Positions 2,986 to 49,427 of a DNA stretch of 64,000 nt are shown here, piece by piece. Made by a program: the position numbers and the translations under genes. Source of the DNA: Candidatus Omnitrophota bacterium (lineage in GTDB: Bacteria > Omnitrophota > Gorgyraeia > Zapsychrales > Zapsychraceae); the NCBI GenBank assembly GCA_015233405.1, contig JADFXT010000001.1, forward strand, positions 18,238 to 82,237, written 5' to 3'. Positions within the stretch are counted from its first letter, which is position 1, and every line of letters starts with the position of its first letter. The notes below the pieces were generated by a model. That model saw only the letters and a list, made by a program, of their open reading frames with translations, was not told the DNA's origin and did no database searches.

Positions 2986-5900
2986 ATGTTTAGAGGGCAA
3001 GGCACAACAAGAAGTAACATACTAAAGACTATGAGTCTTATAGTCCTCTTTATTTTTATCCCTCAGACTTTATTCGCTCAAATCACTCTTCCAACGCCCG
3101 GGACCATGGTCACGACCAGCGCGTCGTTTGTCCCGCCGATGCTCAAAGGGATGAAGGTTGATTTAAAACAGCCGTTTCAATTTGATTTTATTCTCGATAC
3201 CGGAAATTCTAATTTACAGGACGATGATCTAAAAGATGAATCCAATAAGCTCATCCGCTATTTTCTTTCGTCCTTGACCATCCCGGAAAAAGATTTGTGG
3301 GTCAACTTGTCTCCGTATGAGAAAAACCGTATTATTCCCGACGAGTTCGGCACAACGGAAATGGGCCGCGACTTATTGGCGCAGGATTATATCCTTAAAC
3401 AGATAACAGCTTCGCTCATGTATCCGGAAAACGCAACCGGCAAGGCGTTTTGGCAGAAGGTTTATAAAAAAGCCTATGACCTTTACGGCACGACCGATAT
3501 CCCGACGGACACGTTTAATAAGGTGTGGATCGTTCCGGATAAGGCTGTTGTGTATGAGAATCCGACTCCCAAATCCGGAGAGGCAACGGTATTTGTGGTC
3601 GAGGCGAAGTTGAAGGTGATGCTCGAGGAGGATTATTTTGCGACATCGAATACTGTAGGGGCGGGGTTTCCCCGCCATGAGGATAAAGGGCGCGGGAACC
3701 GCGCCCCTACGGCAATAATCAAAGAGGTCATTATTCCTATTTTGGAAAAAGAAGTCAATGAGGGCGCGAATTTCGCGCAACTGCGTCAGGTGTATTATTC
3801 GCTCATTCTTGCTAAGTGGTATAAGGATAGCCTCAAAGAAAGTATCTTAAATCGCAAATATTCCGACCAGAAAAAGGTTGATGGCGTTGACCTGGCCGGT
3901 AAAAAGGATAAACAAGAAATTTATGAGCAGTATCTTAAGGCGTTTAAGAAGGGCGCGTTTAATTACATCAAAGAGGAATACGATCCAACGACGCAGGCGC
4001 TCATACCCCGCAAATATTTCTCGGGCGGGGCGAATTTTAAAATGGAGAAGCCGATTGAAAAGACAAAATTTTTCCCGAGAGTCATGGGTAATGTGGTCGG
4101 AAAGTTAAAAGAAATCGCAGGTGGTTTTAAAAAATGGATTTTATCGCCGAGGCTCAAAGATGCAGCGATGGTGGTAGCAACCGTTGCAACATTAGTCGTG
4201 CATAATGGAGAAAAAAATGAAGAATTCGATCCTGGTGAGGCTGTAAGACCCGTCGCTGCGGTTGTCGATCAAGCAATGGCTGTAGCGGAAGGAGTTAAGG
4301 CAGCTAAGCCGAATGAAACAGCTTTAAGAGAGGGTTTCAAGTTTCCTTATCTAGGCAAAGCCCCACGGGGTTTTATTATGGGAGGCACCACTAGCAATAC
4401 TCCAAGCGAAAATACTAAAGTCAACAATGCCATGATGAATGTTAAAACAGCAGGAAGCCAAGTTCTAAATGTTTTAGGAAACTTTATTAATCCTGACTAT
4501 GTTCGGCAATTTATTTTCGTAGTGACGGGAAGTTTGTCACTTTTAAGTCCCCTGCCATATGATCCTGGTCCTGAGAAGGACTCAAAGAATTGGAACATGA
4601 AACCTGCTATTACAAGTGACCATGCCATGATGAGCGTTAAGTCGGCCATCGGTGTGCTGGCGATGATGTATATGCTTGCTGGATTGGCTATGCCATCATT
4701 CGCTAATACGCCGGGAAATTTGATTAACCCATCGAGTCTGACTGCGCAAGCGCCCCAAACACGTCAGGCCGCGCCGGTTTCTATTTCCATCGACCAGCTT
4801 AAGAATAAAAATGGCATGATATCGGTCAGGGTCATTCCTCATTCTGAGGTTTATCAAGAATATGAAAAAACACTTTTTGCCTTACAAAGCTGGGCTAGAG
4901 ATAATAATTATCAGGAAGTCCGTGATTTAGGGAATTATATTTTGTTCGTCAATAAAGAGGCCGGGATTTCCATCACATTTGAAACCCGCGAGGGCAATAG
5001 CGATAATCAGAATGCGAACCAACAATTGATCAGGCAGGAAGTCAGAGAATTTCAAACAAAAAATAATCAAGCAACGATTGTTTTAAGTGCCGATGGAACA
5101 ACTTCGGAAATATCAACTGCTGATAATCTTTATTTTGCTTCCGGAATGACGGAAAGCCCGGTTATTGTCATCCCTAATAATGTCGATAGCAAGGTCCTTG
5201 ATAAAATTCGAGCCGCGCATCCGAAGGCGACGATTCTTCAGGCGGATGGTGGCGTCCTGATGGATTTTCTTAAACTTCTTCCGTATATTTCTCAGAATGG
5301 CGCGTTAAGTACGAAAAACACTTCATTCTCCGTCGCTGATACATCCAAATCAGCAAATCCTATGAATGCCGGTACAACCGCAATCCTTTTGGCATTACTG
5401 GGCGGCGGTATTGGCGGAGGAATAAGATTTGTGGGAAGGTCCAAGACGCGGTCAAATAATTCGCAGAGTTTTAATGTCAATTTGAGCGGGAGCCCTTCAA
5501 CCAGTAATCCGGGCATAGCAAAGAAAGCACCGAGATATAATGAGAAAGGCGAAGAGATCATTGGTGACTTCGCCATGATGACGAATAATCAGACAACAAA
5601 AATCCCAGCCGCTACCAGCGCAGGAAGGCTCACGCACCTTCAGAAAAAAATGATTGATGCCCTGGCTAAACAAAGACCGGACAAAGGCCAAGAGGAACCC
5701 ATTTATATCGCCGATATCGGATTCGGAGGAATGTCGACCGTGTTTGATTTAGCAAAAGAACTTAGCAGCCAAGGTTTTAAGAATGTTATTTTCTACGGAA
5801 TGGATTACCGTGCTGAAGTTGTTAAAGGCGCGCAAGATTTTGTATCCAAGCAAGGAAACATCGACGGAATAAGCCGTTTTCAATTTGTTAACGGCAGTTT

Positions 5901-6684
5901 TGAAGCTCTTCAGGACAAGGGGCAGTTTGATCTTATCGTAACGTCGAATACCCTGATGTGGTATGACAATGGGACGGATGCGGTCCAGAAATATCGTAAA
6001 AACATGCAACAAGCCCTTAAAGAAAACGGTATGGCGATCGAAGCAACAGGCGGAGGGGAAAAATTTTCTATTGGATATGTTCAGTGGAATAAAAATAATG
6101 TTACTGAAAGAGGGATCATTGACCCCCAGGGGACAGTATCCAGGAGTAATGCTATGATTCAAGAAGAGAGTGTTGAATCAATACAAAAATCCATTGGGGA
6201 AATTTTTCCTATTTTAAAAGATAGCAATAATTTGTCGGCTATTGCTGCTGTTGTCAAAGAACTTCGCGGAAATAATGTCGAAACTCGTCCAGATAAGCTT
6301 GTTAAGTGGATGAAAACAGCCCTATCTTTAGATTTAAACTGTTTAGAAAGCGAACTAGAGTCTAAGTTAGGGATCCAGATGAATGACGTTAACCTTTTTA
6401 AACTTCTCTATGCCGGGCATACAACAGAAGAACGCCTCAACAAAGACAACGCTCCTTTAGCCAATCCTGGTGGTATTGATTTTAATCCGAACCGTCTAGA
6501 GCTTGATAAACAAGGCGCGCATAATGATTTTGAAATGCCGACCAATCCCGCGGACATGGAAAACATCCAGATCAATGGCCTTGTGCCGGTTATTATGAAA
6601 ATCTCGCCGGTCACGAACCTGCCGCTTCTTCTTGGAGCGAATCAAAATAGCGAAACAACCAGTCCGTTACAAGCAGGTTCTTAG
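2986..6684 (+). CDS. Large secreted protein, paralog 1 (signal peptide; N-domain shared with 14975-19825; internal signal-peptide-like segment; putative class I SAM-methyltransferase-like module; conserved C-terminal GGIDxNP domain)
   Basis: RBS AGAGGGGG before ATG. N-region (from ~aa 60 to ~aa 400) aligns with 14975-19825 (DLWVNL..GRDLLAQDY..KVWIVP.KAVVYENP); the first ~60 aa are not shared. MTase-like IADIGFGGMS...FDLIVTSNTLMW. C-term PGGIDFNPNRLELDKQG. Confidence 0.7.
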   Translation: MFRGQGTTRSNILKTMSLIVLFIFIPQTLFAQITLPTPGTMVTTSASFVPPMLKGMKVDLKQPFQFDFILDTGNSNLQDDDLKDESNKLIRYFLSSLTIPEKDLWVNLSPYEKNRIIPDEFGTTEMGRDLLAQDYILKQITASLMYPENATGKAFWQKVYKKAYDLYGTTDIPTDTFNKVWIVPDKAVVYENPTPKSGEATVFVVEAKLKVMLEEDYFATSNTVGAGFPRHEDKGRGNRAPTAIIKEVIIPILEKEVNEGANFAQLRQVYYSLILAKWYKDSLKESILNRKYSDQKKVDGVDLAGKKDKQEIYEQYLKAFKKGAFNYIKEEYDPTTQALIPRKYFSGGANFKMEKPIEKTKFFPRVMGNVVGKLKEIAGGFKKWILSPRLKDAAMVVATVATLVVHNGEKNEEFDPGEAVRPVAAVVDQAMAVAEGVKAAKPNETALREGFKFPYLGKAPRGFIMGGTTSNTPSENTKVNNAMMNVKTAGSQVLNVLGNFINPDYVRQFIFVVTGSLSLLSPLPYDPGPEKDSKNWNMKPAITSDHAMMSVKSAIGVLAMMYMLAGLAMPSFANTPGNLINPSSLTAQAPQTRQAAPVSISIDQLKNKNGMISVRVIPHSEVYQEYEKTLFALQSWARDNNYQEVRDLGNYILFVNKEAGISITFETREGNSDNQNANQQLIRQEVREFQTKNNQATIVLSADGTTSEISTADNLYFASGMTESPVIVIPNNVDSKVLDKIRAAHPKATILQADGGVLMDFLKLLPYISQNGALSTKNTSFSVADTSKSANPMNAGTTAILLALLGGGIGGGIRFVGRSKTRSNNSQSFNVNLSGSPSTSNPGIAKKAPRYNEKGEEIIGDFAMMTNNQTTKIPAATSAGRLTHLQKKMIDALAKQRPDKGQEEPIYIADIGFGGMSTVFDLAKELSSQGFKNVIFYGMDYRAEVVKGAQDFVSKQGNIDGISRFQFVNGSFEALQDKGQFDLIVTSNTLMWYDNGTDAVQKYRKNMQQALKENGMAIEATGGGEKFSIGYVQWNKNNVTERGIIDPQGTVSRSNAMIQEESVESIQKSIGEIFPILKDSNNLSAIAAVVKELRGNNVETRPDKLVKWMKTALSLDLNCLESELESKLGIQMNDVNLFKLLYAGHTTEERLNKDNAPLANPGGIDFNPNRLELDKQGAHNDFEMPTNPADMENIQINGLVPVIMKISPVTNLPLLLGANQNSETTSPLQAGS
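3655..3710 (+). repeat. GC-rich nested palindromic element inserted in frame within CDS
   Basis: GTAGGGGC[GCGGGGTTTCCCCGC]CATGAGGATAAA[GGGCGCGGGAACCGCGCCC]CTAC; sits at the site homologous to the MITE insertion in the paralog. Confidence 0.6.
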
Positions 6685-6735
6685 CTTTTCTTTCCTATTT
6701 GACGCAAAAATTATTTTATGATACTTTAGTGGGTC

Positions 6736-7425
6736 ATGATTAAAGATAATGTAAATAATATTAATAATAAAATTGCCTCTATCTGTGCGCACCTTAGACG
6801 AGACCCCAAAGAGATTGTCCTTGTTGGGGTTACGAAATACGCGGACGTTCCATCAATTAAAGAAGCGGTAGACGCCGGCATTATGCATATCGGCGAAAAT
6901 TACGTCCAAGATGCTGTCAAAAAACTTGAAGAACTTGATACTCTGGGCGTTAAAGTTACAAAGCATTTTATCGGACATTTGCAGACCAACAAAGTTAAGC
7001 TGGTCCTTCCCGTCTTTGATTTGATCCAATCCGTGGACAGCTTCAAGCTCGCCCAAGAAATTGAGAAACAAGCCTTGAAAATCGGCAAAAGGGTTGATAT
7101 TCTGGTTCAAGTCAATATTTCAGGAGAGAAACAAAAATTCGGCGCGGATAAATTGTCCGGCCATCAGTTGGTTAAGGATATTTCAGCGTTAAAAAATATT
7201 CGCATTCTTGGACTTATGACCATGGCGCCCGAGATCGAGGATAAAGATATCATCCGCGAATGTTTTAAGGGCTTACGGTTATTGCGTGATCAGATCGTCG
7301 AGGAAATGGGCCGGCGGGATCATATGGACATGAAATATTTATCCATGGGCATGAGCGCGGATTATGAAATCGCCCTTGAAGAAGGTTCGAATATGGTAAG
7401 AATCGGAAGGGCGATTTTTAAATAA
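6736..7425 (+). CDS. yggS: YggS-family pyridoxal-phosphate homeostasis protein
   Basis: HFIGHLQTNKVK hallmark; ~229 aa alanine-racemase-N-like fold. Confidence 0.85.
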   Translation: MIKDNVNNINNKIASICAHLRRDPKEIVLVGVTKYADVPSIKEAVDAGIMHIGENYVQDAVKKLEELDTLGVKVTKHFIGHLQTNKVKLVLPVFDLIQSVDSFKLAQEIEKQALKIGKRVDILVQVNISGEKQKFGADKLSGHQLVKDISALKNIRILGLMTMAPEIEDKDIIRECFKGLRLLRDQIVEEMGRRDHMDMKYLSMGMSADYEIALEEGSNMVRIGRAIFK

Positions 7426-7435
7426 GTTTTTTGTT

Positions 7436-7531
7436 GTCATCCCCGCAATTTTTAGGCGGGGATCCACAAGATTTGAAAACATGGATTCCCGACCTGTCTG
7501 CCGACAGGCAGGCAAAAGATTTCGGCAATGA
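7436..7531 (+). repeat. MITE/REP-like repeat, copy B
   Basis: GTCATCCCCGCAATTTTTAGGCGGGGATCCACAAG...GGATTCCCGACCTGTCTGCCGACAGGCAGGCAAAAGATTTCGGCAATGAC. Confidence 0.85.
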
Positions 7532-7548
7532 CCTGAAGTGGGGTTGGG

Positions 7549-8370
7549 ATGAAAAGAATGGAAGCATTGACCACTTTTAATATTATGAAAACTAAAATCG
7601 GTTTTATCGGTTGTGGAAATATGGGGCAGGCGATCCTTAAAGGAGTCGTGAAGGATTCCTCTATTCTCGTCGCTGAGAAGGACGCGTCCCGCGTCGCACT
7701 TCTTAAGAAAAAATATAAAGTGGCTTGTGCGGATGTGCCGACCGTGGTTAAGAAATCTAATATTATTATTCTTGCGGTCAAGCCGCAGGATTTTGGCCAA
7801 ATCCTCGACGAGATAAAGGGATCTTTAACAAAGAATCATCTGGTGATTTCTATCGCCGCAGGCATTACGTGTTCGTATATCGAAGAAAGATTAGGGGATG
7901 TCAGAGTTGTCCGCACTATGCCGAACTTGCCGGCGCAGGTTGGTGTGGGCATGACCGCTCTTTGTAAGGGGAAGTTTGCCAAAGATAATGATGTGAAACA
8001 ATCCCAGCGGATCTTTGATGCGATTGGGAAAACCGTTATTGTCGACGAAAAATGGATGAACGCTGTGACGGCCGTCTCCGGCAGCGGGCCGGCGTATGTG
8101 TTTTTATTCGTCGAATGTATGATGAATGCGGCAAAAGCCTTAGGATTCCCGGACGATGTTTCTAAGGATTTGGTCTATCAGACGCTTAAAGGAAGCGTCA
8201 AACTTTTGGAAGAGTCCAGCGACGGGGCAGAAACATTGCGTTTAAAGGTGACGTCCAAAGGCGGAACAACGGAAGCAGCCATCAAAGAATTTTTTGGCGC
8301 AAAGTTAGATGAGATTTTTAAGACGGCCTTGAAAGCAGCGGAAACAAGGGCGAGAGAATTGGCAAAATAA
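7549..8370 (+). CDS. proC: Pyrroline-5-carboxylate reductase
   Basis: GFIGCGNMGQAIL NADP-binding N-term; KGGTTEAAI C-term motif. Confidence 0.85.
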   Translation: MKRMEALTTFNIMKTKIGFIGCGNMGQAILKGVVKDSSILVAEKDASRVALLKKKYKVACADVPTVVKKSNIIILAVKPQDFGQILDEIKGSLTKNHLVISIAAGITCSYIEERLGDVRVVRTMPNLPAQVGVGMTALCKGKFAKDNDVKQSQRIFDAIGKTVIVDEKWMNAVTAVSGSGPAYVFLFVECMMNAAKALGFPDDVSKDLVYQTLKGSVKLLEESSDGAETLRLKVTSKGGTTEAAIKEFFGAKLDEIFKTALKAAETRARELAK

Positions 8371-8382
8371 AAGGAGGCAGGC

Positions 8383-9243
8383 ATGTCCAAAGTCGGGATC
8401 ATCGGCGGGAGCGGGCTTTATGAAATGGAAGGATTTGAAAATAAGGAAGAAGTGGTCATCATCGATACGCCGTTCGGCCAGCCTTCAGGGAATCTGATCA
8501 CCGGGACATTTCAGGGGATTGATGTGGTCTTTATTGCGCGCCACGGCAAAGGCCATCGTTTGTCGCCGAGCCAAATCAACTATCGCGCGAACATTTTTGA
8601 GATGAAACGCATGGGCGTCAGCGCAATTCTATCTGTGTCCGCGGTCGGAAGCCTCAAAGAACATTTAAAGCCGATGGATTTTGTCGTGCCGGACCAATTT
8701 CTAGACCGCACGACCCTTCGGCAAGCGAGTTTTTTTGTGGACGGAATTGTCGGGCACGTAAGTTTTGCCGACCCTGTGGATAAACAACTTGCGAAAATTC
8801 TTGTCGAAGCTGCGAAACAGGCCGGGTCAACGGTCCATGAAGGCGGGACGTATGTCAATATGGAGGGCCCGCAATTCTCGACGAAAGCCGAATCGAATTT
8901 GTATCGCAGCTGGGGAATGGATATTATCGGTATGACCAATATGACAGAAGCCAAATTGGCGCGTGAGGCGGAGATCGCTTACGCTACGCTTGCCGCGGTG
9001 ACGGATTATGACTGCTGGCATCCGGACCATGATTCTGTTACGGTCGAGATGATTCTTAACAACTTGAATAAAAATGTTGCAAAAGCCAAAGAAATCCTTA
9101 GAATTGCTATACCAAAAGTCGGGAAGATTGAAAAGTTTGAGGCGAACGATGCTTTAAAATATGCGCTTGTGACAAGCGGTTCTGTTATTCCCGAGGACAT
9201 TAAAAAGCGATACCAGGTGTTGATTGGAAAATATATAAAATAG
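8383..9243 (+). CDS. mtnP: S-methyl-5'-thioadenosine phosphorylase
   Basis: KVGIIGGSGL; PSxINYRANI; TDYDCW, collinear with MTAP family. Confidence 0.85.
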   Translation: MSKVGIIGGSGLYEMEGFENKEEVVIIDTPFGQPSGNLITGTFQGIDVVFIARHGKGHRLSPSQINYRANIFEMKRMGVSAILSVSAVGSLKEHLKPMDFVVPDQFLDRTTLRQASFFVDGIVGHVSFADPVDKQLAKILVEAAKQAGSTVHEGGTYVNMEGPQFSTKAESNLYRSWGMDIIGMTNMTEAKLAREAEIAYATLAAVTDYDCWHPDHDSVTVEMILNNLNKNVAKAKEILRIAIPKVGKIEKFEANDALKYALVTSGSVIPEDIKKRYQVLIGKYIK

Positions 9244-9257
9244 ACTACTCCGTCACT

Positions 9258-9350
9258 GTCATTCCCGCGAAAGCGGGAATCCAGGATATGTTGTAAATTC
9301 CAGCGCAAAACCGAAAGGAGACACTGGATCCCCGCATGCGCGGGGATGAC
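9258..9350 (-). repeat. MITE/REP-like repeat, copy C (inverted orientation)
   Basis: GTCATTCCCGCGAAAGCGGGAATCC ... GGATCCCCGCATGCGCGGGGATGAC. Confidence 0.8.
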
Positions 9351-9361
9351 ATAATTTCTTT

Positions 9362-12190
9362 ATGGATTATCAAAAAACATTAAATCTGCCTCAAACCGAT
9401 TTTTCGATGAAGGCCGGGCTCGTCGTCAAAGAGCCGTCCTATCTGAAAAAATGGGAGGACGAGGGGCTTTATGCCAAGATCCGCGCGAAATCGCAGGGGA
9501 AAAAAACATTTTTCCTCCACGACGGGCCGCCGTACGCTAACGGCAATATTCACATCGGCCACGCGTTAAATAAAATATTAAAAGATATTATCGTCAAGTC
9601 CCGCACCATGCAGGGCTTTGACGCGCTTTATATTCCCGGCTGGGATTGCCATGGGCTTCCTATCGAGCATCAGCTGTTTAAGGAAATGGGCAAGGACAAA
9701 GCCGAAGTCGATTGCGCGCAATTCCGCAAACAAGCTCATGACTACGCGATGAAATATGTCGGGATTCAGCGTGAGCAGTTTAAACGCTTGGGCGTTTTTG
9801 GCGAATGGGATAAACCATATCTGACGCTCGACACGGAATATGAATATTGGATCCTAAAATCTTTAAGTGAGCTCACTCAAAAAGGGTATGTCTATCGGGG
9901 TGTAAAACCGGTCAATTGGTGTTTTGATTGTGAAACGGCCTTGGCTGAGGCGGAGGTGGAATATGAAGACCACACTTCTCCGTCGGTGTATGTCAAATTT
10001 GAAGTGAACAATTCTGCAATTTTAGGCCTGCCCAAAAATAAAAAAGTTTTTCTTTTGGTCTGGACGACGACGCCGTGGACGCTGTTGGCCAACGTCGCGG
10101 TCGCGGCACACCCGGATTTTCATTATGTGGCGGTCGAAAAAAATGACGAGATTTTTATCCTCGAGGAAAATATTGCAATTAAACTTTTGTCGCAGACGTA
10201 CGAAGAGCATCTTCATAGTCTTATCAGCCCCGTCACAGGCAGTTATTTAACGTCGTTACGTTATACGCACCCTTTTGGGAAATTAAAGGATTGTCCCGTC
10301 GTGACGGCGGATTATGTAACCAAAGACGAAGGAACGGGCTTGGTCCATACCGCACCCGGCCACGGCCAGGAAGATTATCAGACAGGTGTGCGTTGTAAAC
10401 TTCCTGTTTTGATGCCCGTCAATGACCGCGGCGTTTTTACCGTTGAAGGAGCGCCTTTTGAAGGCAAACATGTCCTTAAGGCTAACGCAGAAATAATTCA
10501 GAATTTGAAAGACCGCGGGCTTTTGTTTGATACCAAAGAAATTGTCCATTCCTATCCGCATTGCTGGCGCTGTAAGAAACCCGTCATTTTCCGCGCGACC
10601 CAGCAATGGTTCTTAAAGGTCGATCATAAAAATTTACGCGGGCGCCTCGTCGACATTGTGAAAAGCAGCATTCAGTGGATTCCCGCTGCCGGCCAGGAAC
10701 GCATGCTGGGGATGATCAAAACCCGGCCGGATTGGTGCTTGTCCCGTCAACGATATTGGGGCGTGCCGATTCCTGCGCTTGAATGCAAAGGCTGCAATAA
10801 TAATCATAAACTTTTTATCGAAGTGATCGACCATTTTGCGGAAACCGTCCGTAAAAATGGGACCAATGTTTGGTTTGAGAAAGACCTTAAAGATCTTCTG
10901 CCGAAAGGGTTTAAGTGTCCTGACTGCGGTGGAAACCAATTTGAAAAGACCAAAGATATTCTCGACGTGTGGTTCGATTCCGGTGTGAGCCATCAGGCGG
11001 TTGTTAAAGGCCGGCTTAAGATGTCTCTGCCGGTCGACCTTTATCTGGAAGGCTCCGACCAGCATCGCGGCTGGTTCCAATCTTCGTTGATCCCCGGCGT
11101 TTGCATCGAAAATAAGGCGCCGTTTAAAGCGGTCTTAACGCACGGGTTTGTCGTGGACGGACAGGGACGTAAAATGTCGAAATCGTTGGGTAATGTCATT
11201 TCGCCTTTGGATATTATGAAAAATAGCGGCGCGGACATTCTGCGTTTGTGGGTCGCGTCCAGCTCCTATCATGATGACATCCGGATGTCTCCTGAAAATC
11301 TGGAACGTTTAAGCGATGCCTACCGCAAAATTCGTAATACGTTTCGGTTTATTTTAGGGAATTTAAACGGATTTAATCCTGATACGGATGTGGTTGATTA
11401 TCAAGACCTTTTGGCCCTGGACAAATGGGCGCTATGCCGTTTGTCGACGGTCATGAGCGAAATTTATAAGGACTATGCCGAGTATGAGTTCGCGAAACTC
11501 TATAAGGAGCTCTATACTTTTTGTAACGAAGACCTCTCCAGTTTTTATCTTGACATTTTAAAAGACAGGTTATATACTTCATCACCAATTTCCAGAGAGC
11601 GGAAATCTGCGCAAACAGTTCTTTTTCATATCCTCAATTATTTGGTCAGAGTTTTAGCGCCTTTGGTCACGTTCACGGCTGAAGAGCTTTTCTTTAATAT
11701 GCCGAAGAACAAAGAGTTGGCGCAGTGTTCCAGTGTTCATCTGCTGGAATGGCTTAAAGTTCCGGATGCCTGGAAAGAGGAAGCGGTCCTCGCGCAATTT
11801 GAACGGTTGGTTCATTTAAGGCCGCACATCTTAAAAGCGTTGGAAGATAAAAGACGCGATGGACAGATCGGCAGTTCTCTGGAGGCGAAAGTCATTCTGG
11901 AAAGTGCAAGTCAAAAAGATTTGGAGTATTTAAAAGGATTTGAACGCGCGCTAGCGTCAATATTTATTGTTTCTCAAGTCGAGCTTAAAAGCGTTGCTGA
12001 AGTTACCCAAGGGTTAAGCGAGGAATTTGCGAAAACCCAGGTGAAAATAGAGAAAGCTGACGGACAAAAGTGCCCGCGCTGTTGGAATTATAAAACAGAT
12101 ATCGGGCAGGATTTAGAACATCAAACCCTATGTGCCCGTTGTGTGGCCGCCGTAAAGGAGAGTTTTAATGCCTCAAAAGACAATGGATAA
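9362..12190 (+). CDS. ileS: Isoleucine--tRNA ligase
   Basis: HIGH ([12 protein letters not shown]) and KMSKS (KMSKSLGN) motifs; C-terminal Zn finger CPRCW..CARC; 942 aa. Confidence 0.95.
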
Positions 12191-12554
12191 GAAAAAATTA
12201 GAACATTATAAGAAACTTCTTTTGAAACTCAAAGAAAGTCTTATGCATGATGTTAAGAACATGGCTCATAATACAGATAATCAGGGAAATGAGTCTAGCG
12301 ATGTCTCCGGCCATGTAATGCATATGGCGGATGTGGCGACGGACATGTATGACAAGGAATTTAATTTAGGATTAGCTTCTCACGACAGGCAGCTTTTGCA
12401 AAAGATTGACGATGCGCTCTTGCGTATCGAAAGAGGCACGTATGGTTTTTGCTTAGGCAGCGGCAAACCCATTTCTCAAGCCCGTCTTGAAGCGATTCCT
12501 TATGTAGAATATTGCTTAGAATACCAGGAAGAACTTGAAAGAAAAAAGAAATAA
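12168..12554 (+). CDS. DksA/TraR-family C4 zinc-finger protein
   Basis: C-terminal C-x2-C...C-x2-C-like [21 protein letters not shown]; position between ileS and lspA. Confidence 0.6.
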
Positions 12555-13030
12555 TGAGGGATCTCAAGCGATCTCAATTTGATATTGTTTTAGCTTTTCT
12601 TGTCACAGGCACAGTCGTTTTTCTGGATCAACTCACAAAAAGCCTGTTTTCCAAAATCCTTATCTTAGGGGAATCCCTTCCCGTTATTCAAAACATTTTT
12701 CATGTCACGCTCGTTCATAATACAGGCATTGCCTTTGGTTTTTTAAAAGAGCAGGGTTCTGTTTTTATTGTGATCCCAGCCATCGCCATTATCCTTTTGG
12801 TTTTTAATATTTTCTATTATAAACAAAATGATGAGGCTCTGAGTCGTCCTTATATTATCGGGTTTTCTCTGATCCTGGGTGGTGCGATCGGAAATTTGAT
12901 CGACCGTATCAGCGTCGGATATGTGATTGATTTTATTGATTTTCGCTTCTGGCCGGTGTTTAATGTCGCCGACAGCGCGATCACCATAGGGGCAGTTCTT
13001 ATCGCGGTGAAGTGCTTTAAAACTAAATAA
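12554..13030 (+). CDS. lspA: Lipoprotein signal peptidase (signal peptidase II)
   Basis: FNVADSAI motif, four TM segments, 158 aa, classic ileS-lspA linkage. Confidence 0.9.
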   Translation: MRDLKRSQFDIVLAFLVTGTVVFLDQLTKSLFSKILILGESLPVIQNIFHVTLVHNTGIAFGFLKEQGSVFIVIPAIAIILLVFNIFYYKQNDEALSRPYIIGFSLILGGAIGNLIDRISVGYVIDFIDFRFWPVFNVADSAITIGAVLIAVKCFKTK

Positions 13031-13050
13031 CAGAGTAACACTTCATTATT

Positions 13051-13161
13051 GTCATCCCCGAAATTTTTTGTCGGGGATCCACGATTTTAAAAAGCTGGAT
13101 TCCCGCTTTGGTTCGCCCTTCGCTTACCATCCCGCTTTTGGGCGGGATCGCCGGGAATGAC
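13051..13161 (+). repeat. MITE/REP-like repeat, copy D (extended second hairpin)
   Basis: GTCATCCCCGAAATTTTTTGTCGGGGATCC ... GGATTCCCGC...GGGCGGGATCGCCGGGAATGAC. Confidence 0.8.
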
Positions 13162-13186
13162 AGCAAAAAAGGCGAAAGATTAAACG

Positions 13187-13924
13187 ATGTTTCCCACTAT
13201 TTGTAAAATCGGACCTTTAACTATTTATTCTTACGGACTGATGATCGCCGTAGCGGCCATTGTCTGCACGTGGCTTTTAAGCCGTGATGCGCGGCATCTC
13301 GGCATCTCATCGGACACCATTTCGGATTTGATGTTCTGGATCGTCGTCTTTGGCCTCATCGGGGCGCGGATGCTTTATGTTTTGCTTAATTTGGATTATT
13401 TTATGCCGAACCCGCTAGAGATGGTGATGATCCAAAATGGCGGACTTGCGTGGCAGGGCGGACTTATCATCGGAACAATCGCCGGGCTTTTATTCGTTAA
13501 GAAAAGAAAATTGAATTTGAAGACCATGCTTGATTTATGCGCGCCGTATGTGGCCTTAGGGGAATCCATTGGCCGTGTCGGCTGCCTTTTAAACGGTTGC
13601 TGTTATGGTAAAGAAGTCGGCTGGGGATTGTATTTTCCCATTCATCATGCCAGGCTTCATCCGACGCAGATTTACACGTCTTTAGGGTTATTGAGTATCT
13701 TTGTGATTCTTCGATGGTACCAAAAACAGTCTGAAAGCTCGACCACCGGCAGCGTTTTTGTTTTGTATCTTGTCCTGGCTTCAGCCTTACGTTATTTTGT
13801 CGAATTCTTCCGCGCCGACCATGTTGAGATCCTTTGGGGATTAAGTATCTTTCAACTTGTTTGTCTGCTTTTGCTCTTGACGGCGTGTTACATCTTACTG
13901 CGGTTCGTCAAACCGAAGAAATAG
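13187..13924 (+). CDS. lgt: Phosphatidylglycerol--prolipoprotein diacylglyceryl transferase
   Basis: GGLAWQGG and GRVGCLLNGCCYG signature motifs. Confidence 0.9.
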   Translation: MFPTICKIGPLTIYSYGLMIAVAAIVCTWLLSRDARHLGISSDTISDLMFWIVVFGLIGARMLYVLLNLDYFMPNPLEMVMIQNGGLAWQGGLIIGTIAGLLFVKKRKLNLKTMLDLCAPYVALGESIGRVGCLLNGCCYGKEVGWGLYFPIHHARLHPTQIYTSLGLLSIFVILRWYQKQSESSTTGSVFVLYLVLASALRYFVEFFRADHVEILWGLSIFQLVCLLLLLTACYILLRFVKPKK

Positions 13925-13954
13925 AGCAACCAACTCTACTGGGGAGAGATTTCT

Positions 13955-14857
13955 GTGGCTCTTTATTCTTTTAAAATTAGTTCAGAAAATCAACACCAGC
14001 GACTTGACGTTTTCCTGACCCAGCATTTAACCGACATTCCTTCGCGCGCATTTGTCCAGAAGCTCATTGAGCATGGCCATGTCCGCGTCAACGAAACAAA
14101 AGTCAAGTCACATTACAAACTTCAAATAGGGGAAGACGTCCTCGTCGAAATCCCTCAGGATTTTATCACGCCGCAATATATCGCGCCGGAAGATATTGCG
14201 TTGGATATTTTTTATGAAGACGAATTTCTGTTGGTCATCAACAAGCCCATTGGCATGACGGTTCATCCGGCCCAGGGCTGTTATACGGGAACATTGGTCA
14301 ACGCGCTACTTCATTATTCCAATCAACTTTCGGACGTGAATGATAAAATGCGCCCCGGCATTGTGCATCGGTTAGACAAGGAAACCTCCGGTCTAATGCT
14401 CGTCGCGAAAGATAATATTACGCACACCAAGCTCGCCAAGCAATTCGCACGTCATGAAGTCAAGAAGCGTTACGTTGCTTTAGTCGAGGGGGAAATGCCT
14501 TTTGACGAGGGGAAAGTGGATGTTCCTATCGGCAAGCATCCGTTTCATCACGAGAAGAAAGCTGTATCATTCGCAGATTCTTCCAAAGAAGCCGTGACAT
14601 TTTATCACGTCCTTAAGCGTTTTAACGGCAAGACCTTGGTCGCTTTATATCCTAAGACCGGTCGCACGCATCAATTGCGTGTCCATATGAAACATCTCGG
14701 CCATCCTATTCTCGGCGATGACAAGTATGGAAATAAAAGTTCGTTCCCGCGCTTGGCCCTTCACGCCCAGTCCATCAGTTTTATCCATCCTCAAACGAAA
14801 AAGTATATCGAATTCAGTTTGATGATCCCTCCAGAATTTTCTGATAGTTCTAAATAA
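13955..14857 (+). CDS. rluD: RluA-family 23S rRNA pseudouridine synthase (RluD-like)
   Basis: N-terminal S4 domain; catalytic HRLDKETSGLMLVAK. Confidence 0.85.
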   Translation: MALYSFKISSENQHQRLDVFLTQHLTDIPSRAFVQKLIEHGHVRVNETKVKSHYKLQIGEDVLVEIPQDFITPQYIAPEDIALDIFYEDEFLLVINKPIGMTVHPAQGCYTGTLVNALLHYSNQLSDVNDKMRPGIVHRLDKETSGLMLVAKDNITHTKLAKQFARHEVKKRYVALVEGEMPFDEGKVDVPIGKHPFHHEKKAVSFADSSKEAVTFYHVLKRFNGKTLVALYPKTGRTHQLRVHMKHLGHPILGDDKYGNKSSFPRLALHAQSISFIHPQTKKYIEFSLMIPPEFSDSSK

Positions 14858-14974
14858 TCCCACGCCAGAATATTTTAAAGAAAGCGGTTTCTCCTTAGAT
14901 GCTACCTGGCCTACTCTTTTCTATATAATGTTTTATACTTATATTAGAGTTATAAAAAGAGGGGGAGAACAAAA

Positions 14975-17900
14975 GTGTTGCAATTGTATAGAAATAAAAG
15001 AGTTATAAGATATCAAAAACCTTTCATTTGGGGATTGATTTTCTTTTTTTCGCTTTCCAATATTCCTTTTCCTCAAAAATCTTTCGCTCAAAATATTCCA
15101 GCGGCAGTTAATGTTTTGCCTGCAGCCGCGCAAGCGTTCCAGCCGGTTTTAATCAAGGGAATCAAAGCTTATAAAAATAATCCGCTAAAGTTCGATTTCA
15201 TTTTAGACAAAGGCGAAGCCTTGGGACAAAATGACCCCGCTCGTCCGACGGGAGAGCAAGGGTTACAATTAAAACAAGAAGCCAGCCGACTGATCAAATA
15301 TTTTTTGGCATCTTTGACCGTACCCGAGGAGGATTTGTGGGTGAACTTAAATCCTAAAGAACCGAATAGAATTGTTCCCGGAAAATTTGGCGAGACACAA
15401 ATGGGCCGTGATCTATTGGCGCAGGATTATTTGCTTAAGCAGATTACAAGCGCTTTAATGAATCCGGACGGCGAAACAGGGAAGAAGTTTTGGGAAAGAA
15501 TCTACAGGGAGGTTTATGCAAAGTACGGCTCGACGGACATCCCCGTCGATACGCTCAACAAGGTTTGGATCGTACCAGCAAAGGCCGTTGTGTATGAGAA
15601 TCCGGCGAAAGATGCGGCACAAGCGTCAGCCTTCGTCGTAGAGGCGCGGCTTAAGGTGATGCTGGAGGAAGAATACGAAGCGCTCAAACCGAGCGCGGAG
15701 TCCCGAGCTTCTGCCCCGTTGTCATCCCCGCAATCTTTAAGCGGGGATCCAGGGGTACATAACAAAGCAACTGCTATGGATTCCCGCCTTCGCGGGAATG
15801 ACAAAAAAGGAGATGGGAATGACATGAAGAATGGGCGTGACATGAAGAATGGGAGTGATATAAGTTCTTCAATCATTAAAGAAATCATCATCCCCGAGAT
15901 AGAGAAGGAAGTCAATACCAGCAAAAGTTTTTCGCCGCTGCGCCAGGTTTACAACAGTCTTATCCTTGCCACATGGTATAAGCGGAAACTCAAAGAGAGT
16001 ATTCTGGGGAAGGTTTATTTAAACAAGAACAAAACCATGGGCGTTGATATCGTCGACAAACAAGAAAAACTAAAGATCTATGAGAATTATTTGGCAGCGT
16101 TTAAGAAAGGCACGTGCAATCTCATCAAGGAAGAATATGACCCGGCGACAAAAGAGATTATTCCAAGAAAATATTTCACCGGCGGTGCGCGGATGGCTGT
16201 GGACAAGGCTATGGTGGTAACAAACAAACTGCCTAAGGGATTCATGAAAGCCTTGGGTGTATTATTTCTTTGTTCAAGTGGATTATTTGTTGAGGAAACT
16301 TTTGCGCAAGCGCCGGTAGATTCCCAGCAGGTATCCTTGGCCTCGCAAAAAGAGCATTGGATGAGCCTCGCGAAGACAAATTATGCCGAGGTTTTTCAGC
16401 ATTCTGGGGAATTTATTAATGAACCTTGGGCCATGGACGTTCTTAAGGCCGCAATTTTAGCCACGCCGAACGGCCCATTTTATACGGGTTCCACAGCTGC
16501 TATGGAAAACTTCGATTATTATTTAAAATATGAAAAAGGATGGGAATTCTTTAGATGGATGATGCAAAGATATCCTGAATACGGTTATAGTTATATGGGT
16601 CTGTTTAGAGATAAACCTTATGCTTTAAGAGTGTATGAGCTATTGGCAGAATTGGATCCCGTGGGTATGGTTGATAGGTTGACTTTAAGTGAATATTATG
16701 GCAGGCCTGTTGAAATTGAATCCCCTTACGAAATACCGGAAAACGTTTTGAAACAGATTTTAGCTGGAAGCTCTTCAGATCGGGTCAAGTTGGTCCTTGC
16801 GATCCTACGGCTTTCTATACCACGCGACGAAAAAAAATGGTTGGCACGATTGGCGCCGGATATTTCCAGTGGGAAGTTGACCTTAGAAGAGGCCCAAATC
16901 ATAGTCAAGGATGCGAAAAAATATTTTGAGCGGGCCGTTTCAGTTTATCAATCTCAACCGCCGGAAATAAAAGCGGCCACCTCATGGAGTTTTTTCTATG
17001 AGATAAAGGATTTTTATCTTGGAGAACATTTATCTCCTCTTTATAAGTCTGACAAGAAAAAATTTATGGAAGAAATTCAGGGTCTTGATGCGTACCGGAT
17101 TTATCTTATTTTGGAAAGCTTCAGAGGTAAAGCTTCTTCTAAATTGGAGTCTTTTGATGCGATATTCCCCGTCTTTCTGCAAAAAGTTAAGGCGGAAAAA
17201 TTCAGTATTTCTCAAGCCTCAAGCAGTGCGTATTCTTTGATGGAATTCTTTTCTGATATCAATAGGAACCATCAGGGAAGGAATTTGATGGAGAGTCTTT
17301 CTAAAGAAGAACGGTTGGCCGTTATTCAAAAGATGTCCGAAGCGTTGAATTCCAGGGAGCTTTTCTTTTATTCAATTGATAGAATGAAATACACAATAAC
17401 CATCATGAGTTTTATAGATGATAATTTAGACCTTTTTGACAAGAACGCTCAGGATTATTTAAAACAGGTCAGGGCCAAGCTTCATATTGTTATGGTCGAC
17501 TTGATCAAGAAAGACATCGATGCGCTTGCGGTAGTTGATCAAATAAGGGATCCCGAGTTGATTAATTTGGTCAGAGACATGGCTTTCCAGAAGGTGAAGG
17601 AGCCCCGTTTTAACTCGTCGTTTTTGCTAACCTTTGACCACTATATCAGTCAACCCTGGGGGCAACAGATTCTATTAGAAATCTTGACGAGCGATCCAGC
17701 GAGAGCTCTTAACAATATGGACTTATTAAAGAAAAAATACCCTATTGATTACAATAACCCGCTCATAATGACTTTTAATCAAATCGCGAGTTTGAAAATA
17801 AAACAGTCTGAAAAAGAAAGATTGGCATTGCTTCTTGATGAGCTGGTTAATAAGCGCTTGTCATTAGAAGAAGCGCAGGAATTAATCAAAGATGATTTCT

Positions 17901-19825
17901 TATTGATGCGCCATTTAATCGGAATTTTATCCCGTGATTCTTTAATCGGGCGTGAAGCCATAAAAAGCTTTCTTTCTGATTTTTATCTTAAGTTTGTCCG
18001 GGAAATCAACAAATTACATGAACAGCCGGATTCCGTGCGTTTTAAATCCGTGGAAAAAGCCACGCCGGAGGATTTGTATAAGATCATCGTCTTTGGCGAG
18101 GATGAAGTTTACACGTCGACGTTTAACGGGCTTTTTACCCGGATGATAGAACGTATGAAAGCCCAGGGCATTTCCGGCGAGTCCGGCGAGGAGCTTTTAA
18201 ATTCTGCTGGCCGTTATAAAGTCCGGCCTTTCTTTAGATTGATGGCGAGTTTTAATCGGCTCAATGAATTTCTGGCGACCATGAGCCCTAAGGAGCAGGA
18301 CAATCTTATCGCATATGTTGTGCAGAGTATTGAGAAAGAAAAATATTTCTTAAAAGAAGCTGCTGTTGTGGCGGATATTTTTAGTGTGGTCAAAGACCCG
18401 AAGGTCCTTAAAAAAATTCAGATATTGATCAAGCAGGAATTCCTGCGCGTTCAAAAAGACAAGAATGAGCAAGGCATGGTTCTCTACGGATTGTTAAACG
18501 GCTTGTTTGGTGCTCGGGCTGTTATTGATGGACAATGGTTTAAAGATATGGCGAATCAATTTGGGCTTCCGGATATTTCTGTCTTGTCCCAAAAAACACT
18601 TTTTAATCAGCGGTATCAGAATATTCAACGGCATTTCTTTTATGATGATGAGGACGGTAAGTTATCTTTTGCGGATTTTCTGCAGACTTATCAGAACGAT
18701 TCCAGGAATTGGGAAATCAAAACCTTTCCGACCTATGTCCAGGTTACGTCCAAACACGGGTTTCCGATCGTTATGTATGCCAACCTTCCTGACAGCGTCG
18801 AGAATGGAAATGCCGCTATTGAGGGTGAGTTGTTAATGAAAGGAAACAAACCCCAGGTGATCGTTCATCATGGGCATAGTTATCACGTCGATAAAACCAT
18901 AGAGAAGATCGATTCCGCGGTGACGTTCGTTTATCTGGGCAGTTGTGGTGGATTCGGCCATGTGAGTGAGATTCTTAATTTGTCTCCCAATGCACAAATT
19001 TTTTCCACGAAAGGGACGGGAACGGCCGTTGTCAACGGGCCTTTATTTAAAATAATTAATGACGAGATCCGGCAAAAAGGGATGGTAGATTGGCGAAGTT
19101 TGTGGGTCAAGGCTGAACACAAATTGGGTAATGTTTCGGAATTGCGCAACTACATGTCGCCGGACCGGAACTTAAGCGTCCTATTTTTAAAAGCCTACAA
19201 CAAGAAATTGGAAGAGTTGAAGAATAAATCTTCCATGCCAGCGGATACGCTGCAGCATTCGTCTGTGAACAATCCGGATAGACAGTGGTTTGAAAGAATA
19301 CAACAAAGACGTAATGAATTGAACGCGTCTCTGCAAAATGTTTTGGCAACTAATGGTGATGTCCTGGTCGGACAAGCACGGGAACGTATTTTAAGCAAAG
19401 AGGACGCTCAGCGCCTTAAGAAGGCCCAGCGTCAAGTGGATTACATTCTGGCGGAGCAAGTTGAGCTTAACAGGCTTTTGACTGAGGCACGAAATAATAT
19501 CATTCAACAAAGACAAGCGCCACAGCAGGAAGAAAATCAATTTATGTATGCTTTGGCCCGTCGGGTTTCTCAAGAAGCCGGGAATAATGTTTTTGCTTTA
19601 GAGCACACAGATGCCGCTATGATTACACAAAAAACTCCGGGTGGGATTGATCTTAATCCGCAAAAGATGAATCTTGATATTCAAGGCAAAGGCGAGGATT
19701 TTACAATCCCAGACGGATTTGAGTATCTTTTAAAGGAAGATATCGCAGGTTTTAGCCCTGTCATTTTTGATATTACTCCGATATCTCCTGATAAAATCAC
19801 AGGAATTTTACAGAATTTTCACTAA
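14975..19825 (+). CDS. Large secreted protein, paralog 2 (signal peptide; shared N-domain; in-frame MITE insertion; internal signal-peptide-like segment; C-terminal GGIDxNP domain)
   Basis: RBS AGAGGGGGAG; N-terminal ~400 aa collinear with 2986-6684; C-term PGGIDLNPQKMNLDIQGKGEDF. Confidence 0.7.
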   Translation: MLQLYRNKRVIRYQKPFIWGLIFFFSLSNIPFPQKSFAQNIPAAVNVLPAAAQAFQPVLIKGIKAYKNNPLKFDFILDKGEALGQNDPARPTGEQGLQLKQEASRLIKYFLASLTVPEEDLWVNLNPKEPNRIVPGKFGETQMGRDLLAQDYLLKQITSALMNPDGETGKKFWERIYREVYAKYGSTDIPVDTLNKVWIVPAKAVVYENPAKDAAQASAFVVEARLKVMLEEEYEALKPSAESRASAPLSSPQSLSGDPGVHNKATAMDSRLRGNDKKGDGNDMKNGRDMKNGSDISSSIIKEIIIPEIEKEVNTSKSFSPLRQVYNSLILATWYKRKLKESILGKVYLNKNKTMGVDIVDKQEKLKIYENYLAAFKKGTCNLIKEEYDPATKEIIPRKYFTGGARMAVDKAMVVTNKLPKGFMKALGVLFLCSSGLFVEETFAQAPVDSQQVSLASQKEHWMSLAKTNYAEVFQHSGEFINEPWAMDVLKAAILATPNGPFYTGSTAAMENFDYYLKYEKGWEFFRWMMQRYPEYGYSYMGLFRDKPYALRVYELLAELDPVGMVDRLTLSEYYGRPVEIESPYEIPENVLKQILAGSSSDRVKLVLAILRLSIPRDEKKWLARLAPDISSGKLTLEEAQIIVKDAKKYFERAVSVYQSQPPEIKAATSWSFFYEIKDFYLGEHLSPLYKSDKKKFMEEIQGLDAYRIYLILESFRGKASSKLESFDAIFPVFLQKVKAEKFSISQASSSAYSLMEFFSDINRNHQGRNLMESLSKEERLAVIQKMSEALNSRELFFYSIDRMKYTITIMSFIDDNLDLFDKNAQDYLKQVRAKLHIVMVDLIKKDIDALAVVDQIRDPELINLVRDMAFQKVKEPRFNSSFLLTFDHYISQPWGQQILLEILTSDPARALNNMDLLKKKYPIDYNNPLIMTFNQIASLKIKQSEKERLALLLDELVNKRLSLEEAQELIKDDFLLMRHLIGILSRDSLIGREAIKSFLSDFYLKFVREINKLHEQPDSVRFKSVEKATPEDLYKIIVFGEDEVYTSTFNGLFTRMIERMKAQGISGESGEELLNSAGRYKVRPFFRLMASFNRLNEFLATMSPKEQDNLIAYVVQSIEKEKYFLKEAAVVADIFSVVKDPKVLKKIQILIKQEFLRVQKDKNEQGMVLYGLLNGLFGARAVIDGQWFKDMANQFGLPDISVLSQKTLFNQRYQNIQRHFFYDDEDGKLSFADFLQTYQNDSRNWEIKTFPTYVQVTSKHGFPIVMYANLPDSVENGNAAIEGELLMKGNKPQVIVHHGHSYHVDKTIEKIDSAVTFVYLGSCGGFGHVSEILNLSPNAQIFSTKGTGTAVVNGPLFKIINDEIRQKGMVDWRSLWVKAEHKLGNVSELRNYMSPDRNLSVLFLKAYNKKLEELKNKSSMPADTLQHSSVNNPDRQWFERIQQRRNELNASLQNVLATNGDVLVGQARERILSKEDAQRLKKAQRQVDYILAEQVELNRLLTEARNNIIQQRQAPQQEENQFMYALARRVSQEAGNNVFALEHTDAAMITQKTPGGIDLNPQKMNLDIQGKGEDFTIPDGFEYLLKEDIAGFSPVIFDITPISPDKITGILQNFH
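15721..15868 (+). repeat. MITE copy E inserted in frame in CDS, plus 18-bp tandem repeats derived from its 3' end
   Basis: GTCATCCCCGCAATCTTTAAGCGGGGATCC...GGATTCCCGCCTTCGCGGGAATGAC, then GGGAATGACATGAAGAAT / GGGCGTGACATGAAGAAT / GGGAGTGATATAAGT (translated GNDMKN-GRDMKN-GSDIS). Confidence 0.8.
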
Positions 19826-21744: not shown

Positions 21745-21872
21745 TGTCATCCCCGCAATTTTTAGGCGGGGATCCAGGGTAAAAGTTATTTCAGCAAGCA
21801 TCAAAAATTTGAAAAGCATTTATTGGATTCCCAATCATTTCTGGATAAAAAATCAAGGAAGTTGGGAATGAC
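21745..21872 (+). repeat. MITE/REP-like repeat, copy F (degenerate partial copy just upstream at ~21719)
   Basis: GTCATCCCCGCAATTTTTAGGCGGGGATCCAGGG...GGATTCCCAATCATTTCTGG...GTTGGGAATGAC. Confidence 0.8.
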
Positions 21873-21957
21873 ATAATGTTTGTGCAAGTGAAACATGGGG
21901 TTTCCCCTCCAACTTGTGGGGAGGGAAAATCGATGTCGAATATAGAGAGGAATTTTT

Positions 21958-23172: not shown

Positions 23173-23206
23173 GAAAGTTCACTGTCATGAACGCTGCTTT
23201 GTACTT

Positions 23207-23390
23207 GTCATCCCCGCGAAGGCGGGGATCCAGGATACAGGGTGAACTCCGGCGTGGATAAGGAACAAGCAGATAAAAAAATGACGTCGGGAATGGAATA
23301 TAGCATTGGTTGAGAACGGTAATCTAAAATAGATAGATTTATTTGATAATCTGATTTAATTCTTTGGATCCCCGCCTTCGCGGGGATCAC
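23207..23390 (+). repeat. Composite MITE-like element with perfect ~24-bp terminal inverted repeats, copy G
   Basis: GTCATCCCCGCGAAGGCGGGGATCC (23207-23231) ... GGATCCCCGCCTTCGCGGGGATCAC (23366-23390); internal GGGAATGG fragment. Confidence 0.75.
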
Positions 23391-23484
23391 AAGAATGGAA
23401 ATTAAAGGAGGTGATTTTTAAAACAGAATCCCCAATCGTTTTTTTAAGCAAACCAACTGCTCACAAACAAAAAAGGAGAGAGCA

Positions 23485-42816: not shown

Positions 42817-42944
42817 ACTGGGCGAGTTGTTTTAAAGCTGCCTTTAGTAAAAAATCCTCAGATGATTCCCGTTGATGCTTGCCCGGTTTGCAAATTATTT
42901 TTTAATGTGCTACACTTAAATTGAAAGCTGAAATTTGCTTTTGT

Positions 42945-49426: not shown

Positions 49427-49427
49427 A

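Follow-up and report, generated by a model that had tools for sequence, protein, structure and literature searches.

The 64-kb stretch of DNA analysed here (the window) comes from a 304,738-bp contig of a metagenome-assembled genome (MAG) of Candidatus Omnitrophota with locus tags HQL24_*, and contains two paralogous genes, par1 and par2, in which palindromic repeats are translated as part of the protein. The N-terminal ~380 aa of the two products are 46% identical (E = 1e-96); both begin with a hydrophobic, signal-peptide-like segment ending in FAQ, and both end in a common segment of ~50 aa, PGGID(F/L)NP.... We refer to the conserved N-terminal portion of ~330 aa as the N-domain and to the closing segment as the C-domain. 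Between LKVMLEE(D/E)Y and IIKE(V/I)IIP the two sequences cannot be aligned, with 28 residues in par1 and 67 in par2. An earlier reading of the sequence alone (the sequence-only reading) had noticed a palindromic element in this linker of each paralog. The two elements belong to different repeat families: a doublet of repetitive extragenic palindrome (REP) type, termed REPIN-like below, in par1, and a miniature inverted-repeat transposable element (MITE) bounded by terminal inverted repeats (TIRs) in par2. The two elements are the sole GC-rich perfect hairpins of at least 8 bp within the two genes, which are organized as follows.

2986-6684, + strand: par1 (paralog 1), an open reading frame (ORF) of 1232 aa, annotated at NCBI as MBF0521436.1 with 1217 aa; signal-peptide-like N-terminus, N-domain, low-complexity region, class I S-adenosylmethionine methyltransferase cargo and conserved C-terminal ~50 aa
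14975-19825, + strand: par2 (paralog 2), 1616 aa, HQL24_00145, MBF0521445.1; N-domain and C-terminal segment as in par1, cargo of unknown function
2986-4100 (par1) and 14975-16190 (par2): N-domain
6460-6684 (par1) and 19630-19825 (par2): C-domain
3631-3714, + strand: par1 hypervariable linker, DYFATSNTVGAGFPRHEDKGRGNRAPTA, flanked by LKVMLEE and IIKEVIIP
15671-15871, + strand: par2 hypervariable linker, 67 aa, flanked by LKVMLEE and IIKEIIIP
3655-3710, + strand: par1 element, a 56-bp REPIN-like doublet; left hairpin 3655-3676 (GTAG head), spacer 3677-3688, inverted right hairpin 3689-3710
15720-15803, + strand: par2 element, a full in-frame MITE copy of 84 bp or 28 codons; left TIR hairpin 15720-15752, internal segment, right TIR hairpin 15777-15803
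15813-15858, + strand: tandem array 3' of the par2 MITE; period 18, 2.6 copies, 89% matches (Tandem Repeats Finder)

The par1 element, the nested palindrome already noticed in the sequence-only reading, consists of GTAGGGGCGGGGTTTCCCCGCC, a 12-nt spacer ATGAGGATAAAG and GGCGCGGGAACCGCGCCCCTAC, and together with the following base it encodes VGAGFPRHEDKGRGNRAPT. Its arms are two 22-nt hairpins in inverted orientation, each of which starts on its own strand with GTAGGGGCG... (GTAG). As single-stranded DNA the element folds into one long branched hairpin of -23.8 kcal/mol (z = -5.1), a value equalled by none of 200 shuffles. An inverted pair of imperfect palindromes, a short spacer and a GTAG-type head on both arms are the structural marks of a REPIN, and all are present. 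No further copy of this palindrome occurs in the 64-kb window. The 22-mer arm, GTAGGGGCGSGGTTYCCSCGCC, is present in at least 120 metagenome contigs; at 54 of 94 matches no ORF of at least 150 aa spans it, an intergenic-like setting, and several contigs hold more than one copy (five in L087, three in L085 and a doublet in L088). The arm is therefore a widely dispersed REP-like hairpin. Four further copies, known only at the peptide level, lie in linkers of paralogs from the same genome.

The par2 element runs from TGTCATCCCCGC to GCGGGAATGACA (start TGTCATCCCCGCAATCTTTAAGCGGGGATCCA, end TGGATTCCCGCCTTCGCGGGAATGACA), within 1 nt of the ends first assigned to it, and encodes (L)SSPQSLSGDPGVHNKATAMDSRLRGND. 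It has the properties of a MITE: terminal inverted repeats, small size without a transposase gene, and several dispersed copies. The TIRs are hairpins in themselves, TGTCATYCCCGC..GCGGGRATCCA, with GCGGGRATGACA at the right end. Six intergenic copies in the window align with it over its whole length, so that seven copies of 84-188 bp, with no coding capacity of their own, lie between 2.8 and 23.4 kb. Whether paired within one copy or across copies, the arms (28-36 nt) show 86-97% complementarity, and the number of motif matches expected by chance from shuffled sequence is 0.00-0.24. No copy was observed in the 24-64 kb portion of the window. The intergenic copies are the following.

2834-2932, + strand: in the par1 leader, 3' of a riboswitch and its terminator and 5' of the ATG
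7435-7533, + strand: 91% identical to the 2834 copy over 109 nt
9257-9351, strand not assigned: short-loop, symmetric type
13050-13162, + strand
21745-21873, + strand: right inner hairpin degenerate; right end similar to par2 15806-15836
23206-23393, strand not assigned: 188 bp, arms 97% complementary

Both elements are translated without a stop, and the peptides first read from them were correct. Of the six frames of the par2 MITE only two are free of stops; par2 uses one of these (SSPQ..GDP..GND), which is open as well in two intergenic copies, those at 2834 and 7435. The sequence-only reading had placed both insertions at the same codon position; they do share the same unalignable loop, but the par1 element starts 8 codons after (D/E)Y and the par2 element 16. 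Its proposal that the MITE end had expanded into 18-bp units proved sound: the terminus GGGAATGACA at 15794 recurs at 15815-15824, and this second copy is the base of the tandem array, whose units are GGGAATGACATGAAGAAT / GGGCGTGACATGAAGAAT / GGGAGTGATATA.... In four paralogs of this genome (par2 at 15686-15719, P0014, P0019 and P0152), a segment (K)(P/S/T)SAESRASA(RDLAAS) was also observed ahead of the element, be it the MITE or the doublet. It was ruled out as a third repeat, its DNA being found nowhere else in the window or among 203 fetched loci.

What kind of domain receives these elements? No Pfam or NCBIfam model matched either the N-domain or the C-domain. The N-domain family has more than 4800 significant matches among the candidates scored; every match with an organism label is from Omnitrophota/Omnitrophica or a genus within it, and 577 relatives were confirmed in GTDB species genomes, so that the family is, judging by its sequence matches, apparently restricted to Omnitrophota. 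Its members are built from a signal peptide, the N-domain, a varied enzyme cargo of usually cytoplasmic types, and a C-domain of ~50 aa, GGIDLN...PVIINI.P. Methyltransferases, nucleoside-monophosphate kinases, Nudix hydrolases, HEAT repeats, ABC1 kinases, M48 peptidases and PGK are among the cargoes. A surface location of the N-domain is suggested solely by the signal-peptide-like N-terminus.

The linker was compared in an alignment of 222 homologues. Its length ranges from 17 to 75 aa and its sequence varies, and it is therefore a hypervariable region of the family. The commonest form, found in 47 of the 222, has 33 aa of the type DYLALKENxxNxKxGTDQL....VSS and is element-free. An AlphaFold2 model of par1 residues 1-395 was computed from an 80-sequence alignment (predicted TM score 0.76). 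Residues 225-235 are coil, flanked by confidently modelled helices: a β-hairpin-plus-helix (E180-213, H214-224) precedes them and long helices (H236-292) follow. Confidence falls to a predicted local distance difference test score of 58-59 for residues 221-240. In this model the element position is a structurally permissive loop, which agrees with the earlier suggestion of a tolerated variable linker. A Foldseek search of the PDB with the N-domain model returned nothing significant (best E = 0.05, TM 0.13); the weak top matches were pore-forming toxins of the ClyA/MakB/NheA type, which we did not count as evidence.

The two genes of the window are not isolated cases. Peptides derived from palindromes occur in 30 of the 222 linkers and represent at least five repeat families, recognizable by the following translations.

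VIPAKAGIQ: from GTCATTCCCGCGAAAGCGGGAATCCAG, the hairpin of the MITE TIR
VGA...APT, RG..PLQ and GRPYT variants: from GTAGGGGC-stem-loop-GCCCCTAC, read in three frames
LSSP..GDP...SR(L/F)RGND: from full MITE copies
VILSAAKDL...SSATPQND: from a second MITE family with GTCATYCTGAGC termini
SDISHQ...RRLTT: from a long palindrome of CAGTCATCAG type

The underlying palindromes were confirmed at the DNA level, in a set of 80 GTDB loci and two further contigs, at the following sites. The linker DNA of L024 carries GTAGGGAACGGTcgcgACCGTTCCCTAC and that of L053 GTCATTCCCGCgaaaGCGGGAATCCAG; GTAG-type hairpins are found in L016, L065, L039 and L075, and the long palindrome in L007/L045. In L201, an unrelated JGI contig, a complete MITE, TTGTCGTCCCCGAATGCTTTAGTCGGGGACCCA...TGGATTCCCGATTAAAGCATTCGGGAATGACA, sits mid-linker. 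In L202 (1916-2110; also L203), from another Omnitrophota genome, the loop contains a MITE of the second family, GTCATCCTGAGCG...CTCAGAATGAC, the left arm of which forms a tandem repeat (4 x 27 bp), a parallel to the expanded MITE end of par2. The resulting peptide, NT(A/V)ILSVAK four times over, shows no difference among 7 cluster members, whose assemblies are from ENA and JGI.

Are such hairpins concentrated in the linker? Three measures show a clear enrichment. Of 78 linkers, 10 have a perfect stem of at least 8 bp; of 2319 control windows, equal in length and taken from the same genes, 42 do (odds ratio 8, p = 4e-6). The density of perfect hairpins of at least 9 bp is 0.55 per kb for linkers, whereas the other parts of the same ORFs give 0.06 and the loci outside them 0.17. 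The linker makes up 2.2% of residues and holds 9 of the 15 strict motifs of VIPAKAGIQ/SRxRGND/VILS type and 12 of the 16 loose VGA..APT matches. A second cluster of hairpins lies ~135-143 aa upstream of the linker, in a loop after FDFILDxG (L037 6082, L040 4462, L032, L067 and L068), and a few element copies are found 60-90 residues downstream of the linker or just before TFNKVWI. Hairpin elements were also seen in other N-domain loops at L120 3-24 and 5161-5182.

Eleven paralogs were recovered from the genome of the window, and in 9 of them this loop contains the doublet or the MITE; only P0016 and P0148 are without. The par1-type doublet is found in P0018, P0129, P0152 and probably P0107; the par2-type MITE is found in P0014 and P0015 and, as a variant, in P0019. 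Six of these (P0018, P0129, P0152, P0014, P0015 and P0019) fall within the HQL24 accession block MBF0521436-MBF0522820. P0107 (MBF0523166) lies just past it, and other HQL genomes have distant blocks. The N-domains of par1 and P0018 are 93% identical, a recent duplicate; this pair apart, the N-domains are only 60-75% identical to one another. The 5.8-billion-protein set contains no close orthologue of par1 or par2, the best other match to par2 being 34-41% identical and that to par1 59-61%, over the N-domain only.

How did so many paralogs come to share these elements? The element peptides are ~85-93% identical among paralogs whose N-domains are 60-75% identical. The MITE peptide LSSPQSL(S/G)GDPG(V/L)HNKATAMDSRLRGND is conserved at 26 of 28 positions and the doublet peptide VGAGFPRP(E/D)DKGRGNRAPT at 16-18 of 19; the loop residues directly beside the elements differ among paralogs. 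After P0018, the closest relatives of par1 are P0122 and P0121 (75-76%, from other genomes), and the closest relative of par2 is P0016 (74%, same genome); none of the three has an element, and we regard both elements as insertions, not as parts of an ancestral linker. A neighbour-joining tree of N-domain sequences with masked linkers, approximate in topology, requires at least 4 state changes for the doublet, at least 6 for the MITE and at least 28 for all 30 element-bearing linkers. Because the elements are far more conserved than their hosts and the nearest relatives are element-free, it is unlikely that one insertion in an ancestor was simply passed down vertically. The sequences suggest instead that acquisition was repeated, by insertion, by short-tract gene conversion or by both, and was not a matter of inheritance from one ancestor.

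Why should several repeat families collect in one loop of one domain? We consider it probable that selfish REPIN-like and MITE repeats are tolerated in a permissive loop, in the manner of the Rickettsia palindromic elements (RPEs), and that slippage occurs at the element ends. The loop would be without constraint on length or sequence, so any copy with an open frame and a length divisible by three would be tolerated and translated as extra residues. Copies would arrive through transposition or conversion, and selection would leave only those that combine an open frame, a length divisible by three and an unconstrained loop. Short-tract gene conversion between element copies may contribute, and resident palindromes might attract further elements, a possible though unproven step. 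The hairpin-forming ends would then promote replication slippage, giving in-frame tandem units such as the 18-bp units here; tandem in-frame duplication is indeed found at the ends of two different elements, with 18 bp in par2 and 27 bp in L202. Most likely, the elements are passengers, neutral or nearly so, and not a device dedicated to variation.

Several observations weigh against this reading. Almost no elements are found in the long low-complexity stretches that separate N-domain and cargo, a scarcity that is not obviously explained by simple tolerance and hints at targeting or function. No direct repeat was seen at both ends of any of the seven MITE copies when their flanks were inspected and aligned, although a target-site duplication (TSD) of 1-2 bp would escape such a comparison. 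Mobility is suggested by dispersal alone, and no transposase, REP-associated tyrosine transposase (RAYT) or parent insertion sequence (IS) was identified in the 64 kb of the genome analysed. The MITE copies with a long-loop left arm (2834, 7435, 13050, 15720 and 21745) are all on the + strand, the direction of every gene in 1-24 kb, and the SAESRASA(RDLAAS) segment stands ahead of either element in four paralogs; a purely neutral model neither predicts the former nor explains the latter. That the acquisitions are younger than the paralog duplications is likewise suggested by peptide identity. Furthermore, the strong conservation of hairpins in coding sequence could reflect selection on DNA or RNA structure.

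Some of these points would be expected if the loop DNA were a true insertion hotspot or homing site, to which elements are targeted by, for example, a resident palindrome or local DNA structure, and some IS elements do insert specifically into REP sequences. The same element stands 1 residue before I[IV]K in five paralogs of at least 4 separate clades, two families occupy the site in one genome, and nested or adjacent remnants are present, such as HEGIQS with VIPAKAGIQ in L053; the far larger low-complexity regions left nearly free of elements and the mosaic segment ahead of either element point the same way. However, elements are also found in at least 2 other loops of the same domain and in other genes, the insertion points within the linker vary between families and genomes, neither a conserved target motif nor a TSD was found in the flanks of the seven MITE copies, and the counts are small. 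We regard targeting as possible and, on the whole, doubtful. A bolder version, a phylum-wide homing site at which several unrelated palindromic families are actively targeted to, or cassette-exchanged at, one loop of a secreted domain with very diverse enzyme cargo and, with slippage, continually remodel an exposed loop of a predator/epibiont effector-delivery family, seems to us unlikely; if it were true, the phenomenon would be a repeat-driven system of protein diversification and not passive junk. We hold as tentatively the idea of concerted evolution, that is, one or a few old insertions spread or homogenized by short-tract gene conversion, among paralog linkers or with intergenic copies, without repeated transposition. 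The high identity of the element peptides relative to the flanking domain speaks for it, as do the internal segment HNKATAM, common to par2, P0014 and P0015 and different from that of the window's intergenic copies, and the first duplicated terminus GDGND, common to the same three. On the other hand, the diverged flanking loop residues would require conversion tracts that match the element borders exactly, the element-bearing paralogs are polyphyletic, and the different families in other genomes are left unexplained.

Could the insertions serve the protein? The sequence-only reading had raised the prospect of a mechanism for surface-protein variation, for which we find no support. Six clusters at 90% identity, with 3 to 9 members from JGI, ENA, NCBI and Logan, were compared (P0110, P0103, P0020, P0197, P0221 and P0056; par2 forms a singleton cluster). 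Within these clusters the linkers are identical across different samples wherever the linker is present, the fourfold repeat of P0110 included, and the length differences are start-codon calls. On/off phase variation was also rejected: the tandem unit of 18 bp keeps the frame, and therefore cannot act as an on/off switch. A selected module, in which a variable exposed loop diversifies a secreted or surface family in host or prey interaction or immune evasion, or in which the hairpin acts in mRNA or DNA as a pause or processing signal between subdomains, is in our view quite unlikely. It would accord with the signal-peptide-like N-termini, the hugely expanded family with its diverse loop, the hairpins kept inside coding sequence, the uniform MITE orientation and an in-frame expansion that leaves the ORF intact. 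Against it stand the lack of within-population variation in the clusters examined, including the fourfold repeat in 7 sequences from several samples, the many plain linkers of 17-33 aa, with an element-free form the commonest, and a peptide content dictated by the palindromes, with no conserved function-like motif. It is highly improbable that the linkers are ancestral and vertically inherited, or the product of an assembly or annotation artefact or a pseudogene. The ORFs do come from a MAG and have no close orthologue, but both are open (for 1232 and 1616 codons) and retain the conserved C-terminal domain, the nearest relatives are element-free, the par2 copy matches intergenic copies end to end, and the phenomenon recurs in copies from other genomes, in many independent assemblies; we rejected the ancestral-linker and artefact readings on these grounds.

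To our knowledge, terminal tandem expansion has not been described as a feature of RPEs. In other respects these are, by analogy and not by homology, the closest functional analogue. RPEs are repeats found in frame in many ORFs at fold-compatible positions (PMC10969869, citing Ogata et al. 2000 and 2002), and in-frame copies of ERIC, BOX and QMITE1 provide further precedents (PMC10969869). Like RPEs, the elements described here are short, dispersed palindromic repeats, intergenic as well as inside ORFs, in frame and translated, at fold-tolerant sites and with several families in one genome. They differ in phylum and in length (56-105 bp versus roughly 100-150 bp), and they are found in one loop of one domain family across many paralogs, whereas RPEs are scattered over unrelated genes.

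REP doublets reportedly form hairpins, called REPINs, that are mobilized by RAYT transposases. REPs and REPINs are by definition largely extragenic, and REPs are normally species-specific. The par1 element resembles them in its two inverted imperfect palindromes of ~22 nt, its 12-nt spacer and its GTAG head, and its arm is widely dispersed, often in doublets. In contrast to REPINs, the par1 copy is coding and single in the window, and its arm recurs unchanged in many unrelated metagenome contigs, an unusual spread for a REP. The par2 element shares with the bacterial MITEs (ERIC, BOX, Correia/NEMIS, QMITE1 and the Anabaena MITEs; PMC10969869) its TIRs, small size, lack of coding capacity, multiplicity (seven copies in 24 kb) and in-frame fusion. 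Unlike those MITEs, it has no visible TSD, and each of its TIRs is a stable hairpin, a REP-like module. Its core hairpin, GTCATTCCCGCGAAAGCGGGAATCC, is presumably of the dRS3/NIME type of Neisseria repeat (ATTCCCNNNNNNNNGGGAAT), which we take to be a source of VIPAKAGIQ/SRLRGND in spurious ORFs. The Omnitrophota repeats differ from dRS3/NIME in phylum and in being paired as the TIRs of a MITE. A literature search turned up no account of palindromic repeats in Omnitrophota, nor of this N-domain family; two papers on giant proteins of the phylum mention long multi-enzyme proteins and nearby type II secretion/pilus loci and are silent on this domain and its repeats.

The surroundings of par1 and par2 include further features. 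A c-di-GMP-I-GGC variant riboswitch lies upstream of par1 at 2651-2731 on the + strand (62 bits, exceeding the gathering score), followed 3' in the par1 leader by a terminator-like hairpin with a T-run at 2757-2786; a second, canonical c-di-GMP-I riboswitch lies at 42942-43029 on the + strand (65 bits). Pilin- or pseudopilin-like genes with a KGFTL(V/I)E N-terminal motif are found at 23485-24000, 24612-25097, 43412-43510, 47520-47580, 47933-48391 and 49392-49877 (repeat families D3, D5 and D11), and three GspE/PilB-type ATPase paralogs at 20030-21712, 36520-38304 and 38308-40029 (repeat families D1, D7 and D9). By these genes, par1 and par2 adjoin a type II secretion or type IV pilus-like region. 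A perfect palindrome with a 15-bp stem, AAAAAGGGGGGCTTTTAAAAAGCCCCCCTTTTT, at 43869-43901 resembles a bidirectional terminator.

What do the insertions mean for Omnitrophota? Palindromic selfish DNA in frame has been known mainly from Rickettsia and from scattered MITE cases, and is now found in an uncultured phylum. It is unusual that one loop of one expanded family has been colonized dozens of times by several repeat families, that acquisition has run in parallel within a single genome, with 9 of the 11 recovered paralogs affected, and that element ends have expanded into in-frame tandem repeats. VGAGFPRP..GRGNRAPT, VIPAKAGIQ and SRLRGND in Omnitrophota proteins should be read as repeat-derived loop markers, not as conserved motifs. 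The findings also draw attention to a very large uncharacterized Omnitrophota family that joins an N-domain, enzyme cargo and a C-domain. In this family, target preference, gene conversion and selective tolerance may be told apart in a natural system of repeat-shaped proteins.

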